From sequence record PZ445428.1: a DNA stretch of 64,000 bases; one strand, written 5' to 3'. Made by a program: the position numbers and the translations under genes. Numbering within the stretch: the stretch's first letter is position 1; every line of letters begins with the position of its first letter. The stretch is from a phage. Under the pieces are notes generated by a model that ran no database searches, had not been told where the DNA came from, and was given only the letters and a program-made list of their open reading frames with translations. Positions 5,652-53,396 of this stretch are shown here, piece by piece.

Positions 5652-6164
5652 ATGCAAATCATCACTGTTGAAGATTACAGACTATATGCTAACGCAAAAC
5701 GTCCTGAAATTGAAACACAAGTAGATATGATGATTAAAGCTGCCAATACGCTGATTACTAGCCTTCTAGGTATGGACGACGCGGATGCGGTAGATCAATT
5801 AATCACTACTAAACCTAGCCGTAGGAAATACTTTTTGAGTTCTCCTTCTGCTACATCAGTCACAAAGATGACTATTAATGAGAATGAAATAGCCCCGGAA
5901 CAGTATAAACTGTATCCAGATGGTGTTATTCTCCTTAAATTTAATCCACCAGAAGGGTATATGGATGTAGAATATACGCAAGGTGGTTTCAACCCAATGC
6001 CTGAAGATCTCAAGCTGGCTGCATGTCTATTAGTAGATCACTGGCATAAACAAGATTATCGTCAAGCCAAGACTATTGGTGGTGAAACAGTAACGTTTAA
6101 CAATACTAAGTCAGGTATTCCTGAGCATATTCGTACAATCATCGAAGTCTATAGGAGAGTATAA
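5652..6164 (+). CDS. Head completion / head-tail adaptor protein (putative)
   Basis: 170-aa ORF directly after capsid gene terminator; assignment by gene order only. Confidence 0.4.
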   Translation: MQIITVEDYRLYANAKRPEIETQVDMMIKAANTLITSLLGMDDADAVDQLITTKPSRRKYFLSSPSATSVTKMTINENEIAPEQYKLYPDGVILLKFNPPEGYMDVEYTQGGFNPMPEDLKLAACLLVDHWHKQDYRQAKTIGGETVTFNNTKSGIPEHIRTIIEVYRRV

Positions 6165-6931
6165 TGTCTCTTTCTGATCTAGCTAGACAGATTATCAAAG
6201 AGCAGCTAGATACAGCAGGACGATCTGAAAATAATAAGAACACTGTTGTGTATACTGTTGAAACTGGGCTTAAAGATCCGAAAAGGGATGGTACTGTTGC
6301 GCAAGTATCATTCAAGTTCTCTAAACCAGTATCGCAGGACTTATTAAACGTGAGGACAGCCTCTATCTTGAAGGCTGTTTCCGCCAACTTAGATCTTTCT
6401 GGTGACTTAGGCGCTCTGGAAAATCTCATACAAGCCACGGCAGGCAAAAGATCAGCCGTTGGTAAGAAACGCTCAACTGGTAGGGTTCAAGTAAACTTTG
6501 GTGATCCTAGAGATACTGAAGATGGTTATTCAGGTGCAGTTACAGGTGCGGCTGGACGATTCGTTTCAAATAGTAACATGAAGGCTATCTTGGAGATAGT
6601 AGCTAAAGAATATCTTATTAAGGATATGAAGAAAGCAGGAGCGCCACTGAAATTCAGAACTGGACGTTTTGCTAACTCCCTTAAAATCAAAGATGTTATG
6701 TTACGTGATGCTGAAACAAGTCGTGGTGCTCCTGAACTTAATGTGACCTACAATTATATGGTTAGACCTTACTCAGTATTCAACCCCGCAGTATCCACCT
6801 ATCGCAGACTGTCTTTACGTCCTTACCCTGGGGCGAGAAACCCACAAAAACTTATTGGGGAAGCGATAGCTAAAGCTGCAAGAGACCTGATTCACTCTAG
6901 ATATAAAATCAAGGTTAATCAAGGAACCTAA
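6164..6931 (+). CDS. Structural protein, head-tail joining region (hypothetical)
   Basis: 255-aa ORF with AGGAGAG RBS, start overlaps upstream stop; synteny only. Confidence 0.35.
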   Translation: MSLSDLARQIIKEQLDTAGRSENNKNTVVYTVETGLKDPKRDGTVAQVSFKFSKPVSQDLLNVRTASILKAVSANLDLSGDLGALENLIQATAGKRSAVGKKRSTGRVQVNFGDPRDTEDGYSGAVTGAAGRFVSNSNMKAILEIVAKEYLIKDMKKAGAPLKFRTGRFANSLKIKDVMLRDAETSRGAPELNVTYNYMVRPYSVFNPAVSTYRRLSLRPYPGARNPQKLIGEAIAKAARDLIHSRYKIKVNQGT

Positions 6932-40063: not shown

Positions 40064-40834
40064 TTATTTTTTCTCCAATAGTTCTTTAATCGACAGGATT
40101 TCTATCCCATTCGTTTCGGCTTTCTTATAAGATGAGGAAGAACGCTTTGATTCATCCTCACAGATGAGGTAGTTTACGTCTTTGGTAACGGACTTCTTAA
40201 CCGTATATCCTAGACTTTCTAAGTAGTTTGTTGCATCCGTTCTATTTGCAAAATCTTGCAAAGAACCGGTAATACATACCACGATTCCGTTCGGTTGAGC
40301 AACTAAATCATCGATAAAGATGATATCAGCTTTTGTGCCCCGAATACCAGAACTAAATTTCCATGGTAGTTCGATAACATCCTTGCCTTGTGGGGAATTT
40401 AGCCAGGCTTTATAATTTTCTCCAGCTTTGCCGTCAGCCTTAACATCATTAAAACTAATGCAACCCTGGGATAGCTTTTTAGCAGCAACCTCTCCAATCA
40501 GAGGGATTCCTAAAGAACCGAGAACTGAACCAAAGTCAATGTCTCCGCGAACCTTAGTATTTAACTCGCTAATTAACTTAGCGGCAACCTTACTTCCCAC
40601 AGCTCCGACCAAATCTTCTTCGGTCAGGTAAAACAGTTCTGAGATCTTAGTCAGTTCCAGCTTTTCAATTGTTTTCGGGCCAAAGCCCTTTAACTTCATC
40701 TTTGTGCAGAAGTTCTCAATTAACTTACTTGACTGAGCTGGACAGTTGGACTTATTCCGACAGAATAATTGTCCGTTGACAAGATCTAGCTTAGAACCAC
40801 AAGAGGGACATTGTGTTGGAATTTCGATTTTCAT
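40064..40834 (-). CDS. ligB: NAD-dependent DNA ligase, C-terminal part (zinc finger/HhH/BRCT-like)
   Basis: Begins CPSCGSKLDLVNGQLFCRNKSNCPAQ (LigA-type Cys4 zinc finger) then HhH-like GFGPKTIEKL. ATG at 40834 after AAGGAAG. Confidence 0.7.
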   Translation of the reverse strand: MKIEIPTQCPSCGSKLDLVNGQLFCRNKSNCPAQSSKLIENFCTKMKLKGFGPKTIEKLELTKISELFYLTEEDLVGAVGSKVAAKLISELNTKVRGDIDFGSVLGSLGIPLIGEVAAKKLSQGCISFNDVKADGKAGENYKAWLNSPQGKDVIELPWKFSSGIRGTKADIIFIDDLVAQPNGIVVCITGSLQDFANRTDATNYLESLGYTVKKSVTKDVNYLICEDESKRSSSSYKKAETNGIEILSIKELLEKK

Positions 40835-41040: not shown

Positions 41041-42012
41041 TTAATCTACTCGCTCTACAATACATGGGATTACACCACCAGCACGAATCACTCGAATCTG
41101 GCAACCGATCTCTAAATCGAGAGCGTTAATGTAATCAACGTTATTGAGAGTTGCTTTAATAATCTTGGCATCGTCAATAATTACCGGTTCGAAATATCCA
41201 ACAGGAGTTACTTTACCAGAAGCCCCTACCTGCCACTCAACTTTGAGAAGAGTTGTAATTTCGCCTTCTTCATCTTGTTTAATTGCATAAGCACCACGAG
41301 GATGTTTATTTGTCCAACCTTCACGGAAGAATTTGTTGTTGTCATTAATACGAACAACTTTACCATCCATTGGATACCAGTTGAAGTAGTTTTTAATATT
41401 CAGTACAGTGATGAAATCTTCGTTAGCTAACCAAGACATATCATCTAAGTAAGAGCCTGTAATACCTACAGAATCTTCGGAACACTGAATACCATAAGCT
41501 ACAAAGATCAATCCACCTTCCGCAATACGTTCGATGAAGTCATCTTCTTCTTTTAAGTTAATAGCACCAGAAGCGTAGTTACGTTTGTTTTCTACTTCTT
41601 TAGTGATAAGAACTTCACCAGTGATTTGAGTTGGTACTTTCTGAGAAATCTTTTTCGGAATGTTCAGCAATCTAACGTTGCTTGTGACATCATTTCCTAG
41701 AATACCATTACCACGAGTTAACGCTTGAACAAACGTTCCGTCGATATACAACAGAGAAATTGCGCAACCGTCTAGCTTATCAGTTTCTACATCATCAAGA
41801 GTAGTGAATGGAGCTTTATCACCCCGATCGAAGTAAACTTTCTGCAAAGAATACATACGATACAGATGTGGGATATCACCTTTCGGACCGATGGCATCTT
41901 CCGCTGTTGGGAAACGTTTAAGCAGACGATCATACTCAGCATCAGAGATAATACTATAACCCTGATAATACGCTTCTTGACAACGTTGGATAAACTCTTT
42001 TACATTATTCAT
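41041..42012 (-). CDS. ligA: NAD-dependent DNA ligase, N-terminal adenylation/OB part
   Basis: KLDGCAIS (KxDG adenylation motif), N-terminal AYYQGYSIISDAEYDRL NAD-binding-like segment. Start set to ATG 42012 (MNNVKEF); track begins at TTG 42054. Confidence 0.75.
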   Translation of the reverse strand: MNNVKEFIQRCQEAYYQGYSIISDAEYDRLLKRFPTAEDAIGPKGDIPHLYRMYSLQKVYFDRGDKAPFTTLDDVETDKLDGCAISLLYIDGTFVQALTRGNGILGNDVTSNVRLLNIPKKISQKVPTQITGEVLITKEVENKRNYASGAINLKEEDDFIERIAEGGLIFVAYGIQCSEDSVGITGSYLDDMSWLANEDFITVLNIKNYFNWYPMDGKVVRINDNNKFFREGWTNKHPRGAYAIKQDEEGEITTLLKVEWQVGASGKVTPVGYFEPVIIDDAKIIKATLNNVDYINALDLEIGCQIRVIRAGGVIPCIVERVD

Positions 42013-48039: not shown

Positions 48040-48130
48040 GTAAAATTTTCCCGACGGTGCTATCAGTGGCCTTGAGTACGGAGAAAACCGAGCCAAAGTG
48101 ACTCGGTAATCAGGATTGTGCTAAGGAAAA

Positions 48131-48538
48131 TCAATCATCATTTAGACCTGGAACATAGATTCCAATACGGTTTAATTGATGTTTGGCTTCTTCGAGAATA
48201 TCTGGAGTGTACTCCCAAATATCATCTTCCACAAATAACAAATAAGGGGACTCACCTGTTTCGGGGTCACGTGTAATGGCGTAACCGCGTGGGTGGAACA
48301 GGGAGAAGTTTAGGGCAACAATAAGACCCATACGAGATAGCTCATTCCAGTGCATCTCAAAATCTACAGGAACATCATTTTGATCTCTACTGGTAACAAA
48401 GATTCCTAGACAAGGATCTGTCGGGTCAGTAAAGGGGAAAGTTACACTAACCTTTTCAACCCCCAACCAACGTGCAAGGAGCCCTTCAGCCCGCTCCACT
48501 AAACTAGGATCAATAAGACGCCAAGATACTTGTTCCAT
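48131..48538 (-). CDS. Hypothetical protein (paralogue of 48549-48977)
   Basis: 135 aa, strong AAAGGAGG RBS; shares C-terminal motifs with neighbour. Confidence 0.4.
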   Translation of the reverse strand: MEQVSWRLIDPSLVERAEGLLARWLGVEKVSVTFPFTDPTDPCLGIFVTSRDQNDVPVDFEMHWNELSRMGLIVALNFSLFHPRGYAITRDPETGESPYLLFVEDDIWEYTPDILEEAKHQLNRIGIYVPGLNDD

Positions 48539-48548
48539 TCTGCCTCCT

Positions 48549-48977
48549 TTAAGCAGTTAAACCAGGGATCTGATAGCCGAAATGACGCAGCTTCTGGATA
48601 CCCTCATTTATTTCTTCGGGCGAATAATGCCAGCCCTCACGTTCATTTACCTGGAAAGCCGGAGCCTCCCCATTACGATAGTTTACTATCAAACGATGTT
48701 TAATAGGCATGAACAGTTTGTAGTTCAATGCAAAAACCAATCCCATGTAGTCCAGTTCTTTCCAGTCTACAATCTCTTCTACCCCATCTTCCAACATTAC
48801 ACTGATACCAATGCAGCTAGCTTCATCAGAGTCTGAAGTAAACGCGAAAGCAATCTCATTATTCTCACACCAAATCTTGAGAGTATTAATGGCTTCCTCA
48901 AACAGATTATCCGGCAGAGAACGCCAGAAGTTGATAAGAAGTGGATTGATATTGGTTTCAAATAGGTTATTAAACAT
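48549..48977 (-). CDS. Hypothetical protein (paralogue of 48131-48538)
   Basis: 142 aa; shares MGLxxALNxxLFxP and VPGL/IPGL motifs with neighbour. Confidence 0.4.
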   Translation of the reverse strand: MFNNLFETNINPLLINFWRSLPDNLFEEAINTLKIWCENNEIAFAFTSDSDEASCIGISVMLEDGVEEIVDWKELDYMGLVFALNYKLFMPIKHRLIVNYRNGEAPAFQVNEREGWHYSPEEINEGIQKLRHFGYQIPGLTA

Positions 48978-48979
48978 AG

Positions 48980-49519
48980 CTATACCTTTAAGTTTTGAAG
49001 GGCTTTACACATTGCAAGATCAGGACTAAACTCCAGCATATAGCTGATAGCATTCAGATCCTGCATATTTATTCCAGTTCTACCATTGACAATAACTGTT
49101 GGATACTGGTACATCATAGCTCCAGCATCATCTAGGACACACCAGTGCTTGAGTTTGTACTTTTCCACAAACCGAAGAACAGAATTGCCTCTAGATAATC
49201 CACCACCAGTAAAATCAGTAGTACCAAGAAAACGATCAACCAGACCTAACGCGGTCATGATCTCAACATTCTCCACCTCGTTACGTACTGTAAACCATGA
49301 TGAAACCCCAACAATCATTATACCGGATGGTTTTAAGAAGTTCTGGAAAGCCTGTAGTAAAGGTTTGAAAACCCAGTCTCCACCAAAGAAGATCTTCTCT
49401 TCATCTGGAGCATGGTGGTGAGAGATGCTCGAATTGAGCACCCCATCAATATCCAGAAAAATAATTGGAGTATTACTTAGATCCACCGGATTTGTCCCAT
49501 TGCAGAGTTTTAGCTTCAT
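48980..49519 (-). CDS. HAD-superfamily phosphatase-like protein
   Basis: 179 aa; IIFLDIDGVLN (HAD motif I DxDG) and later VLDD. Confidence 0.5.
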   Translation of the reverse strand: MKLKLCNGTNPVDLSNTPIIFLDIDGVLNSSISHHHAPDEEKIFFGGDWVFKPLLQAFQNFLKPSGIMIVGVSSWFTVRNEVENVEIMTALGLVDRFLGTTDFTGGGLSRGNSVLRFVEKYKLKHWCVLDDAGAMMYQYPTVIVNGRTGINMQDLNAISYMLEFSPDLAMCKALQNLKV

Positions 49520-49798
49520 CGGAGAAAGGAATATGGTAGTCTACCTTACCCTTACCAAACATAGCCGCCAAAAATACAGTATAGATAGTAATCATACCAA
49601 TCAGGTTTACAGTCCACACCAATACTTTCCAGATACCCTTAAAAATCTTCTTCACCATATTCTTCCTCCTTAATCAGGAATTCTTTCCATTCTGCTGTAT
49701 CCTCATAGATAACGCAGAAATCATCACTCTTGCACGAGAAATCATCAGTAGCATATTCAAAACGGTAGCACCAACTACCATCTGGCCATACTAAAAGA

Positions 49799-50575
49799 TC
49801 ACACATGCTTTTGCGGTGCATAAATAGTTCCTTCCATAAAAGCCCCTACTTGGCCAATAAAGTGTTTGTTACCAAAAACTTCGGCAGCCCCAGCACGCCA
49901 TACAGTAACACCACGTTTCTCATACAAGGACTGTTCTAAGTAGTTGATAGTTGGGTTAACAACCATCATCTTAGTACCCCGTGCCACCGCAGGAAATAGT
50001 TCCCAGTTGAAGTTGATAACTTGGTTACTGCACCCAACCACGATAACCATATCATTAGCCGTAAGACTATCGAAAGTAGCGTTCATCAAAGCGTATTCAG
50101 GGGCTACTTCACCGAAGAATACAACGTTAGGCTTAGCCCAATAAAACTCATCAGGATCTATGGCAGTATAACCCACATCTAGGATATACTCTTTTCGATC
50201 TGGCAATTCCTTAATACGAACTTCTGGTAAATAACCATGAACGTGTAGAACTTCACTTTTTGGCACACCAGCCCTTTCCAGTAGATCATCCACGTTAGTA
50301 GTGATGTTCAGTACAGTCTCTGGATATCGTTGGAACCACTCCCCAATGCGGAGATGCGCAATGTTAGGTTCAACAGTCTGCAATTCCTGACGACGCTTGT
50401 TGTAGAACTCGTGGGTTTTCCAGTAGAACTGTCCACGGAAAGCATGAATATCACATACTTCTTCCAGATCGTATTCATCCCACATTGCCTTGCCACTAGC
50501 AGTATCTGTACGGAATGCACGGATACCACTATCAACACTTAAACCTGCACCACTAACAATAATTAGTCTACGCAT
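49799..50575 (-). CDS. Sir2-like (sirtuin-fold) NAD-binding protein, no zinc-ribbon cysteines
   Basis: 258 aa; GAGLSVDSGIRAFR (sirtuin GAGxSxxSGIPxFR-type), HVHG, VVFFGE, VVVGCS; the CxxC...CxxC zinc motif is absent. Confidence 0.65.
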   Translation of the reverse strand: MRRLIIVSGAGLSVDSGIRAFRTDTASGKAMWDEYDLEEVCDIHAFRGQFYWKTHEFYNKRRQELQTVEPNIAHLRIGEWFQRYPETVLNITTNVDDLLERAGVPKSEVLHVHGYLPEVRIKELPDRKEYILDVGYTAIDPDEFYWAKPNVVFFGEVAPEYALMNATFDSLTANDMVIVVGCSNQVINFNWELFPAVARGTKMMVVNPTINYLEQSLYEKRGVTVWRAGAAEVFGNKHFIGQVGAFMEGTIYAPQKHV

Positions 50576-50813
50576 TTTTCACCTGCTCTCGGAAATTTTG
50601 ACCAATACTATCTAATAGCTCAGCTAATTCTTTATTACCTTTTTCTACTAAGGTATTAGCAATAACTTCCAGCATAGTAGCACAAGATTCAACACCATCT
50701 TTGTAACCAGTTTCCCAGTGTTTCATTAAAACACCCTGAAACTCTTCATTGAGCTTGTTTAGGTCAATGAGGCTAACATTTTCACTTGGTAGCTTCTGAC
50801 TCGAGAATGCCAT
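50568..50813 (-). CDS. Hypothetical small protein
   Basis: Start set to ATG 50813 after GGAGGA; track ORF begins at 50945 but its N-terminal 44 aa look non-coding. Confidence 0.35.
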   Translation of the reverse strand: MAFSSQKLPSENVSLIDLNKLNEEFQGVLMKHWETGYKDGVESCATMLEVIANTLVEKGNKELAELLDSIGQNFREQVKNA

Positions 50814-50985
50814 ACAGTTTGTCCTCCAGTTCCATAATACGATTTTCATAGGAAGCACGCAGCTTCTCGATGGATAAAGCACGAACCGTAACCTCATCTG
50901 AGTTAATCGCCAGTTGAGCGAGGTCTTCCGTTTCCATGCGGCCATTGTAAATTAAGCGATATTTAAGATGTTTTACGTTTTTCAT
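50782..50985 (-). CDS. Hypothetical small protein
   Basis: 67-aa ORF with AAGGAAG RBS; overlaps the next gene by about 32 nt. Confidence 0.35.
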   Translation of the reverse strand: MKNVKHLKYRLIYNGRMETEDLAQLAINSDEVTVRALSIEKLRASYENRIMELEDKLYGILESEATK

Positions 50986-50994
50986 TCTTCTTCC

Positions 50995-51276
50995 TTAGTT
51001 CTGTACTGTAAATGCGTTTTTATCGGCATGAGCATTATAAGGATCATTCATGCGATAGATTTTCACAGCTTTAGTAGACCCTTTTGATTCTTCATAATCA
51101 ATCCAGAGCCACTTGTCTTTGCCTACATAATGTACCCGAAATTTCTTAACTTTCTTATCGTTCCACGTTGCTACAACTCTACGATAATCAAAGCCACCTA
51201 ACCAATCAAGAGCCTTACGTTCTTCACTAGGCTCTCCCAAATGTGAAACGTCCACTTTAGGAAGCAATTCGCTCAT
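50995..51276 (-). CDS. Hypothetical protein
   Basis: 93-aa ORF directly downstream of a conserved promoter/RBS cassette. Confidence 0.4.
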   Translation of the reverse strand: MSELLPKVDVSHLGEPSEERKALDWLGGFDYRRVVATWNDKKVKKFRVHYVGKDKWLWIDYEESKGSTKAVKIYRMNDPYNAHADKNAFTVQN

Positions 51277-51304: not shown

Positions 51305-51333
51305 ATTATACACAAATTTTTAGCTGAAAGCAA
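51305..51333 (-). promoter_or_regulatory. Early promoter cassette
   Basis: Minus strand TTGCTT-17 nt-TATAAT then AGATTTATAAATTTGAGAGGAG and ATG. Confidence 0.55.
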
Positions 51334-51367
51334 ATAAAATAAAAGCCAGGTCGACTAGCAACCTGGC
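51334..51367 (-). terminator. Rho-independent terminator after nrdD
   Basis: Minus strand GCCAGGT...ACCTGGC hairpin followed by TTTTATTTTATTT. Confidence 0.6.
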
Positions 51368-51375
51368 TGATTCAC

Positions 51376-53279: not shown

Positions 53280-53308
53280 ATTATAGCTCATTTGAAGGCG
53301 TATGTCAA
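53280..53308 (-). promoter_or_regulatory. Sigma70-type promoter for nrdD (divergent from phoH promoters)
   Basis: Minus strand TTGACA-17 nt-TATAAT then GAGAAGGAG RBS. Confidence 0.55.
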
Positions 53309-53366: not shown

Positions 53367-53396
53367 TTGACACCTTACCCTATTTTATACTATAAT
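53367..53396 (+). promoter_or_regulatory. Sigma70-type promoter (phoH operon, distal)
   Basis: TTGACA-18 nt-TATAAT. Confidence 0.5.

Follow-up and report, generated by a model that had tools for sequence, protein, structure and literature searches.

A phage sirtuin without zinc-binding cysteines, co-transcribed with a HAD_SAK_2 phosphatase, and its possible part in RNA-end healing

What does a sirtuin do in a phage when it lacks the cysteines with which canonical sirtuins bind zinc? This question is raised by a gene on the minus strand at 49799-50575 in a stretch of 64,000 nucleotides of phage DNA (record PZ445428.1; "the window" in what follows). The window matches Escherichia phage TrudiGerster (MZ501108) with 100% identity. 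TrudiGerster (Demerecviridae, Epseptimavirus) is T5-like and comes from the BASEL collection; a window coordinate equals the MZ501108 coordinate minus 480. A sequence-only reading of this DNA had taken the product for a zinc-less Sir2-like protein that works on nicotinamide adenine dinucleotide (NAD+) in host takeover or counter-defence. Our analysis confirms that 49799-50575 is a real, intact sirtuin gene without zinc-binding cysteines. As to its function, we tentatively prefer, without being confident of it, the possibility that the enzyme removes 2'-phosphates from RNA in the manner of Tpt1/KptA and so heals RNA ends cut by host nucleases; the RNA mended in this way would probably be tRNA.

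The TrudiGerster record already labels the gene (bas27_0052) as encoding a 'Sir2-like protein'. The Pfam SIR2 profile PF02146 matches residues 9-186 (E=2.3e-23; 83.5 bits, the cut-off being 24), and the match spans positions 1-178 of the 180 in the profile, while PHROG 2162 ('Sir2') matches the 258-residue protein with E=2.9e-105. In agreement with these matches, every motif on which an NAD-binding signature had been claimed is present, namely GAGLSVDSGIRAFR at residues 9-22, HG at 113-114, FGE at 154-156 and GCS at 181-183. The claim that the zinc-ribbon cysteines are absent holds as well. The only cysteines are C41 and C182, which form no CxxC pair and of which neither lies between HG and FGE; this 40-residue stretch (residues 114-153), the canonical location of CxxC...CxxC, is free of cysteine. 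In an alignment with CobB the zinc-cysteine positions are occupied by I, D, E and F, and a conserved cysteine pair in the HG-FGE stretch was found in none of 35 aligned homologues. The four-cysteine zinc site by which canonical sirtuins are recognized is therefore missing from the phage protein.

An AlphaFold2 model built from the 35 homologues (predicted local distance difference test score, pLDDT, 90.7; predicted template-modelling score, pTM, 0.88) places strands at residues 114-122, 130-133 and 146-151, where the zinc ribbon usually sits, with pLDDT of about 95. Judging from the model, the small beta-sheet module is kept and the metal ligands alone are lost. The top Foldseek match of the model is CobB (1s5p; template-modelling scores, TM, 0.77/0.87), followed by Sir2Af1 and SIRT5, and the best 50 matches are canonical sirtuins throughout. 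By sequence, the best match in the PDB is again E. coli CobB (E=5e-19), then Sir2Af2 (1ma3), Sir2Af1 and SIRT5, so that profile search and structure prediction both place the protein among canonical sirtuins. In NCBIfam, all seven sirtuin models score below their cut-offs (best 108.7 bits against 243); since the CobB and deacylase models fall so far under the curated thresholds, the phage sirtuin is not a CobB orthologue. Descent from class III (CobB/SIRT5-like) enzymes nevertheless appears to be the best explanation of both sequence and model.

The alignment of the 35 homologues, which reaches down to 58% identity, speaks to the state of the active site. Invariant in all 35 are G9-A-G11, S16, G17, F21, R22, Y58, R61, N94, D96, H113, G114, F153, F154, E156 and G181-x-S183, and G155 is nearly so; V151 and F154 of the acyl-lysine tunnel are conserved, as are G155, E156, N207 and P208. 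As far as sequence and model go, the best explanation is that the gene encodes an active, NAD+-consuming sirtuin.

Is it then an NAD+ hydrolase (NADase)? The sequence-only reading had likened the protein to zinc-less Sir2 domains of other contexts, which act as NAD+ hydrolases or ADP-ribosyltransferases; by analogy with those of defence systems, it would be a free NADase or would ADP-ribosylate proteins in the course of host takeover. The zinc ligands are indeed absent, and some canonical sirtuins have weak ADP-ribosyltransferase activity. Furthermore, a Q-to-T change in the active site (see below) gives 'TTNVD', which may resemble the active-site motif of SIR2_2 NADases, although neither the literature nor a search confirmed the resemblance; 'TTNYD', a putative motif of SIR2_2 proteins, did not occur in a literature search. 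The SIR2_2 proteins of defence (ThsA, DSR1/DSR2, Sir2-HerA and Argonaute-associated Sir2) and the vertebrate FAM118 proteins likewise belong to the sirtuin superfamily, are zinc-free and consume NAD+. However, no PADLOC family matches the phage sirtuin at E<=1, PF02146 is its sole Pfam match at E<=1, with no SIR2_2 model among the hits, and a PDB search with the active-site segment alone returned canonical sirtuins only and no defence-type sirtuin. The SIR2_2 defence sirtuins are a separate subfamily that lacks the entire zinc module; they are sensor-coupled oligomers, and in ThsA and the FAM118 proteins the central sheet is made of seven strands (PMC12700824). Unlike them, the phage sirtuin keeps its three-stranded beta-sheet module, matches none of their models and stands alone: no SLOG, HerA, Argonaute, TPR or other sensor partner is fused or adjacent to it, its neighbours being a HAD phosphatase, DUF7415 proteins and small open reading frames. 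We thus rejected kinship with the defence Sir2 NADases. A pocket with invariant Y58 and R61 would be superfluous for a plain NADase, and NAD+ depletion for host takeover fits poorly with a phage whose DNA ligase needs NAD+ and which carries putative homologues of an NAD+-rebuilding pathway, NARP3. A free NADase or protein ADP-ribosyltransferase therefore seems quite unlikely to us, and the sequence-only reading is supported in part: it was right in spirit, in that the protein is NAD+-linked and possibly involved in counter-defence, and wrong in its central analogy.

What distinguishes the phage sirtuin from CobB and SIRT5, with which it shares the Rossmann NAD+ site, the catalytic His/Asn/Asp, the FGE loop and a Y-x-x-R motif, is the loss of the zinc cysteines, a different gene context and a substitution in the motif TQN(I/V)D, whose canonical Q is replaced by T93 (ITTNVDDL). 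Within the close clade T93 does not vary. Of 6294 matches to a profile searched against 1.84 billion representative proteins, the best 148 that could be scored were compared for this signature. A residue other than Q at position 93, mostly T, occurs in 43 of 53 zinc-less sequences and in 14 of 95 with at least three cysteines, 81 of these 95 zinc-bearing relatives having kept Q93 (Fisher p=9e-16, uncorrected for shared ancestry). Across these sequences, zinc loss and the Q-to-T change appear to go together. The Y-x-x-R motif is found in 42 of the 53 zinc-less representatives, and its Y58 and R61 align with Y92 and R95 of CobB, which we take to form the class III pocket for the carboxylate of succinyl-lysine; Y92 is among the residues mutated in an engineered CobB (entry 6rxs). 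In the enterobacterial-phage subclade, moreover, four residues are inserted into the cofactor-binding loop (FRTDTxSGKxxW, as compared to FRAADGLW of CobB/SIRT5). We had considered this TDTxSGK insertion as a clade-wide trait and rejected it, for of 42 distant zinc-less representatives only about 5 have it, which makes it a trait of the subclade.

Phage sirtuins of this kind have been noticed before. Skliros et al. (2016) reported that the sirtuins of phages KVP40 and phiSt2 are free of zinc ligands, and listed T5 as a carrier (PMC5107563). The Vibrio phage copies share this lack of zinc ligands and are about 40% identical to that of the window; they differ in belonging to jumbo schizo-T4-like phages, where the sirtuin lies beside NAD+ salvage genes. 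Iyer, Burroughs, Anantharaman and Aravind (2022; section 3.7.3) then described a clade of phage 'RNA-repair' sirtuins with their neighbourhoods, and predicted that the sirtuin works like KptA/Tpt1 in stripping 2'-phosphates from RNA; their neighbourhood type 3, named after Escherichia phage SP15, combines the sirtuin with a Swiss-army-knife HAD (PMC9503650). The phage sirtuin of the window is a member of this clade, and of type 3, because it belongs to PHROG 2162, because a HAD_SAK_2 gene lies downstream, beyond two small genes, and because no Macro domain occurs in the eight neighbouring genes. Its identity is 52-68% to the copies of the clade in rV5-like phages, Mydovirus and T5-like phages and 38% to that of CBB, all of them within PHROG 2162, and SP15, itself T5-like, has a DUF7415 protein 73% identical to the window's. 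Thus, it was already known that the gene exists (by annotation), that zinc has been lost (2016), and which clade, HAD partner and mechanism may be assigned to it (2022). Our evidence can accommodate the earlier proposal that the enzyme serves counter-defence by working on NAD+ or nucleotides, but this had already been published in the more specific form of an NAD+-dependent RNA-repair sirtuin (PMC9503650). What we add to Iyer et al. is the coupling of zinc loss with Q93T, the retained Y-x-x-R pocket and a defined transcription unit, together with a natural double deletion in phage DT57C, chromosomal orthologues in Marinobacterium and links of the clade to NAD+ salvage genes and to PTH2.

Our survey of neighbourhoods in 13 phage lineages that carry the sirtuin clade independently reproduces all three types of Iyer et al. 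In 7 of the 13, an enzyme of RNA ends or of tRNA is encoded within three genes of the sirtuin. T5-like phages have HAD_SAK_2 within three genes, and the linkage, seen in T5, recurs in Pantoea phage AAS21 and in contig L094, where HAD_SAK_2, one gene and SIR2 follow each other in an order reversed with respect to T5. The rV5-like phage JeffSchatz has RNA ligase, cREC and sirtuin, with a polynucleotide kinase and a phosphoesterase alongside; Mydovirus KB57 has RNA ligase, cREC, kinase, one small gene and then the sirtuin; in the jumbo phage CBB the sirtuin is followed by a Nudix-cREC fusion; and in contig L098 it overlaps the gene of a PTH2 peptidyl-tRNA hydrolase. NAD+ salvage genes adjoin the sirtuin in 3 of the 13 lineages, with NAMPT and NMNAT/Nudix in CBB, NAMPT in contig L028 and an overlapping NadR-like gene in contig L096, in which a HAD_SAK_2-like open reading frame also lies within 4 kb. 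Two candidates for hidden partners were rejected: a 184-residue protein whose gene overlaps the sirtuin start in the phi92-like phage ALITA is not a HAD (hhalign probability 0.2), and a 262-residue protein encoded next to the HAD in Proteus phage SJ_PmiM is not matched by the clade profile of the sirtuin.

Three considerations lead us to favour Tpt1-like chemistry. First, the sirtuin is constant while its neighbours vary among cREC, HAD, Nudix and NAMPT/NMNAT. These partners can be assigned predicted roles, cREC as a cyclic phosphodiesterase, HAD as a phosphomonoesterase, Nudix as an ADP-ribose pyrophosphatase and NAMPT/NMNAT in the recycling of nicotinamide, and as a set they would fit the fate of an ADP-ribose product that bears a phosphate. 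In yeast, the corresponding route leads from Tpt1 to Cpd1 and then to Poa1, and Tpt1/KptA, too, is linked to steps of RNA ligase, cyclic phosphodiesterase and ADP-ribose-phosphate phosphatase, as in the phage neighbourhoods. Second, sirtuin and Tpt1 chemistry are alike, in that an oxygen of the substrate attacks C1'' and the 2''-OH then attacks an electrophilic centre; the two-step reaction of Tpt1/KptA uses NAD+, releases nicotinamide and passes through an ADP-ribosylated intermediate, which is resolved by the ribose 2''-OH. Third, Q93T adjoins the nicotinamide ribose, and the invariant Y-x-x-R pocket would suit an anion. The likeness is functional only and implies no membership, for Tpt1/KptA has an ADP-ribosyltransferase fold that is unrelated to the Rossmann-type fold of the phage sirtuin.

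The substrate and all chemical steps that follow are what we infer; the mechanisms of sirtuins and of Tpt1 are established, and their carry-over to the phage enzyme is ours. A phosphate oxygen of the damaged RNA, taking the place of the carbonyl oxygen of acyl-lysine, would attack C1'' of NAD+, with release of nicotinamide. The ribose 2''-OH, activated by H113, would then attack the phosphorus as it attacks the imidate carbon in deacylation, which would free the RNA hydroxyl and leave ADP-ribose 1'',2''-cyclic phosphate. The HAD may strip the remaining terminal phosphate from the RNA, or else dephosphorylate ADP-ribose-1''-phosphate once the cyclic phosphate has been opened. For the sealing step, T5-like phages would require host enzymes. 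A broader version, which we consider doubtful, is that the zinc-less T93 clade as a whole never acts on protein lysines and instead removes phosphates from damaged RNA ends with NAD+ to give ADP-ribose cyclic phosphate, and that HAD_SAK_2 or cREC then deals with the by-product or with the RNA end.

The same active site can be read in another way, as that of an ordinary NAD+-dependent lysine deacylase of the CobB/SIRT5 type that remodels the acylation of host or phage proteins during infection. Its zinc site would then have been swapped for a hydrophobic mini-core, and its neighbourhood would reflect the general clustering of auxiliary metabolic genes. A deacetylase role was indeed argued by Skliros et al. 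from a homology model, through activation of acetyl-CoA synthetase (PMC5107563). The top sequence and structure matches in CobB, the Sir2Af proteins and SIRT5, the alignment of Y58/R61 with the CobB pocket, the conservation of V151, F154, G155, E156, N207 and P208, the acidity of the protein and the housekeeping contexts of its Marinobacterium orthologues all agree with it. On the other hand, the zinc module is reportedly required for deacetylation by canonical sirtuins (PMC12700824), the otherwise universal Q of TQN(I/V)D is replaced, and the scores against the NCBIfam models remain far below threshold. A deacylase also gives no account of why cREC, HAD_SAK_2, Nudix-cREC, RNA ligase and PTH2 are linked to the sirtuin in shuffled order in unrelated phages. 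Moreover, it would be expected beside a Macro-type enzyme that deals with O-acyl-ADP-ribose, and a Pfam scan found no Macro domain among the eight neighbouring genes, in contrast to the situation of SirTM, which requires an operonic Macro partner. We consider a deacylase possible, but rather unlikely.

Returning to the Tpt1-like reading, several observations weigh against it. The residues just listed make the sirtuin look, by sequence and model, like an ordinary lysine deacylase (Y-x-x-R, FGE loop, V151 and F154 kept), and the acyl-lysine tunnel would be narrow for something as bulky as an RNA end. With an isoelectric point of 5.4 (clade median 5.2) the protein is acidic, as RNA-binding enzymes usually are not. 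Nothing recognizable surrounds the sirtuin in 4 of the 13 sampled phage neighbourhoods, and around the chromosomal Marinobacterium orthologues there are metabolic genes of an ordinary kind and none that point to RNA repair. What cREC and HAD_SAK_2 do is itself predicted, and we found no experimental study of any clade member in the searchable literature, as the sequence-only reading had supposed. Finally, no RNA ligase, polynucleotide kinase, cREC or phosphoesterase was found in about 107 of the 114 kb of TrudiGerster, so that the repair pathway would be incomplete in T5-like phages. This search consisted of Pfam scans of ten larger hypothetical proteins and of tblastn with nine probes, and as neither gave a match, we rejected the idea that TrudiGerster conceals an RNA ligase, kinase or cREC.

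How, then, is the gene embedded in the phage? The sirtuin gene has the primase on one side and the nrdD/phoH/nrd genes on the other, and is preceded by a T5-conserved sigma70-type promoter; the 'early region' location given to it before is plausible. It is the fourth of nine genes that are tightly packed or overlapping (Table 1), and the terminator that closes the unit is conserved with one annotated after T5.107. In the T5 reference record, T5.100 to T5.107 are annotated as a single unit from promoter to terminator. Since the genes overlap or are closely packed, and since promoter and terminator are conserved with those annotated in T5, the sirtuin and HAD_SAK_2 are co-transcribed in one unit. 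The HAD phosphatase-like neighbour and the duplicated pair of small genes that had been noted beside the sirtuin are both there, the latter as two DUF7415 paralogues.

Table 1. The sirtuin transcription unit and its flanking signals, in order of transcription (window coordinates).
Feature	Position	Strand	Remarks
nrdD terminator hairpin	51368..51344	minus	terminator scan; directly precedes the promoter of the sirtuin unit
sigma70-type promoter, TTGCTT-17 nt-TATAAT	51305..51333	minus	near base-for-base match to the annotated T5 promoter upstream of T5.100
first gene, 93 aa, PHROG 7953, function not assigned	50995..51276	minus	no Pfam match
small gene, 67 aa, PHROG 5236, function not assigned	50782..50985	minus	
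small gene, 81 aa, PHROG 5827	50568..50813	minus	stop overlaps the sirtuin start by 8 nt
sirtuin gene, zinc-less class III-like, 258 aa	49799..50575	minus	intact open reading frame; bas27_0052; T5.102 orthologue
small gene, 60 aa, PHROG 5116	49639..49821	minus	23-nt overlap with the sirtuin stop
small gene, 61 aa, PHROG 11166	49473..49658	minus	
HAD_SAK_2 phosphatase, 179 aa from first ATG	48980..49519	minus	Pfam PF18143, E=8.7e-19; T5.105 orthologue
DUF7415 protein, 142 aa, first paralogue	48549..48977	minus	T5.106 orthologue
DUF7415 protein, 135 aa, second paralogue	48131..48538	minus	T5.107 orthologue; 32% identical to the first
Rho-independent terminator, 9-bp stem CCGAGUCAC/GUGGCUCGG (RNA), then UUUUCUC	48081..48107	minus	-12.6 kcal/mol

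The partner in this unit is described by Pfam as 'HAD domain in Swiss Army Knife RNA repair proteins' and carries the UniRef name 'RNA repair protein'; the TrudiGerster record annotates it as 168 residues long, with its start at 49486. The phosphatase is intact: each of the four HAD motifs (D23-x-D25, S73/S74, R110 and D130) is invariant in 21 homologues, and D131 is nearly so. In RefSeq records of T5-like phages, HAD_SAK_2 is often mis-annotated as 'Sir2 (NAD-dependent deacetylase)' (e.g., T5.105; L102 5589..6095), and PHROG 18062, labelled Sir2, actually matches residues 88-179 of the HAD. This mislabel probably stems from fusion remnants that hold parts of both genes, such as an open reading frame of DT57C described below. 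A relationship of the HAD to the 'phage phosphatases' described in the aRES preprint was also considered and rejected, as those are Macro-domain enzymes. Among distant HAD_SAK_2 loci, two lie by a sirtuin, two by phosphoribosyl pyrophosphate (PRPP) synthetase and NAMPT and one near an RNA ligase, the others being uninformative. In Serratia phage ChuuTotoro (L090 4001..7217) and in contig L093, HAD_SAK_2 heads a gene cluster that also encodes PRPP synthetase and a NAMPT-type phosphoribosyltransferase. Because of this position, we suggest that at least some 'RNA repair' HAD_SAK_2 members act in NAD+ or nucleotide salvage.

Such clusters bear on a further possibility, namely that the sirtuin and the HAD act on small molecules derived from NAD+, either converting or destroying metabolites of the ADP-ribose type or immune signals, or feeding the phage's own NAD+ economy together with its salvage genes. 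The salvage genes adjoining the sirtuin in CBB, L028 and L096, and the HAD_SAK_2 loci of ChuuTotoro and L093, would be in keeping with this. TrudiGerster itself is engaged in NAD+ metabolism. It has a split NAD-dependent DNA ligase, with genes for the A and B subunits at 40064..40834 and 41041..42012 (both minus), as in T5 ligA and ligB, and because of this ligase the phage depends on NAD+ for replication. Outside the window, amid a tRNA cluster in a genome with about 30 tRNA genes, MZ501108 72730..74464 (L007 14931..16665) encodes a NadR-like nicotinamide mononucleotide adenylyltransferase and a PnuC-like transporter. By annotation and gene order only, these resemble NARP3 of BASEL phage Bas30, an NAD+-rebuilding pair (NadR-like, PnuC-like) that was characterized in 2026 (PMC13464706). 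CobB, moreover, was discovered through an activity of phosphoribosyl transfer to a small molecule (cited in PMC9503650). Against this, sirtuins are not known to act on signals of this kind, the NAD+ consumption of a sirtuin opposes the restoration of NAD+, and the phage enzyme known to dephosphorylate ADP-ribose-1''-phosphate is a Macro domain and not a HAD. Nor would it explain why RNA ligase, polynucleotide kinase and PTH2 are linked to the sirtuin, and we think a small-molecule role unlikely.

How widespread is the gene? A tblastn search against 50,697 phage records found matches in at least 1000. Identities amount to 58-100% in T5-like phages, about 65% in Mydovirus, about 59% in phi92-like and about 53% in rV5-like phages, and to 34-43% in several jumbo phage groups and Vibrio phages (38% in CBB). 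The homologues are labelled variously as Sir2-like, NAD-dependent deacetylase, deacylase or even sirtuin-5, and the sirtuin is thus a long-recognized and widely annotated phage gene. In cellular genomes, the triple signature (zinc-less, T/S93, Y-x-x-R) was found at only about 21 loci in Marinobacterium, Oceanospirillum and Haliea, with 39-45% identity; weaker cellular matches all have Q93 and at least three cysteines, barring two that are incomplete or degenerate. The chromosomal branch (L009-L029, match at about 6001..6730) is kept across about 20 Marinobacterium genomes. We had looked at its context for a functional clue, which was rejected, the metabolic neighbours being ordinary ones that are not conserved across the genus. 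At several chromosomal loci, a second, zinc-bearing sirtuin lies 2-5 kb from the zinc-less one. One further contig with the signature, L028, named 'MAG: Bacilli bacterium', is phage DNA, with NAMPT, the zinc-less sirtuin, a T4-type endonuclease VII and NrdD encoded consecutively.

Despite this wide occurrence, the module can be lost. In DT57C, the open reading frame annotated as 'sir2' (L101 2968..3240) encodes 90 residues, in which sirtuin residues ~172-207 are joined in frame to HAD residues 139-179. Deletions have removed both catalytic centres along with the two intervening small genes, and have spared the DUF7415 pair. In its sister phage DT571/2 the region is intact, with full-length copies, such that the two phages are a natural knockout pair. 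In JLBYU43 (L088 1481..2020), HAD_SAK_2 is split into two open reading frames, both annotated as 'putative RNA repair protein', through a frameshift or a sequencing error. Since DT57C has lost both catalytic centres and the HAD is split in JLBYU43, the sirtuin-HAD module is accessory and non-essential in laboratory hosts, and in DT57C it is dispensable. Dispensability of this kind may be what one expects of a conditional counter-defence or auxiliary function. It could also mean that the gene is decaying and has no current function in the phage, as the viability of DT57C and the split HAD might suggest. The open reading frame is intact, though, its catalytic residues are invariant over hundreds of phages of several families, and DT571/2 and T5 keep full-length copies, which makes decay highly improbable in our estimation. 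A note on DT57C that calls the T5 copy 'defective' was rejected, as the T5 reference record contains a full-length gene for 272 residues.

If RNA repair is indeed its function, more than 1000 sequenced phages, among them T5-like, rV5-like and several jumbo groups that serve in therapy and as models, would have turned a sirtuin from protein deacylation to healing the ends of nucleic acids. It would be the first sirtuin whose physiological acceptor is a nucleic-acid phosphate, which would extend sirtuin chemistry, and a widespread NAD+-dependent counter of phages to immunity that cleaves RNA or tRNA, tying RNA repair to the contest over NAD+ in which NARP1-3 take part. If it is a plain deacylase, phages would be rewriting host protein acylation with a canonical sirtuin that folds without zinc. 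Under either reading the question of its substrate is directly testable, with the natural knockout pair of DT57C and DT571/2 at hand.

Elsewhere in the window, two perfect (12/12) sigma70 promoters (TTGACA, 17/18 nt, TATAAT) lie between nrdD and phoH, at 53280..53308 on the minus strand and at 53367..53396 on the plus strand. They point away from each other, and T5 has annotated promoters at the same place.

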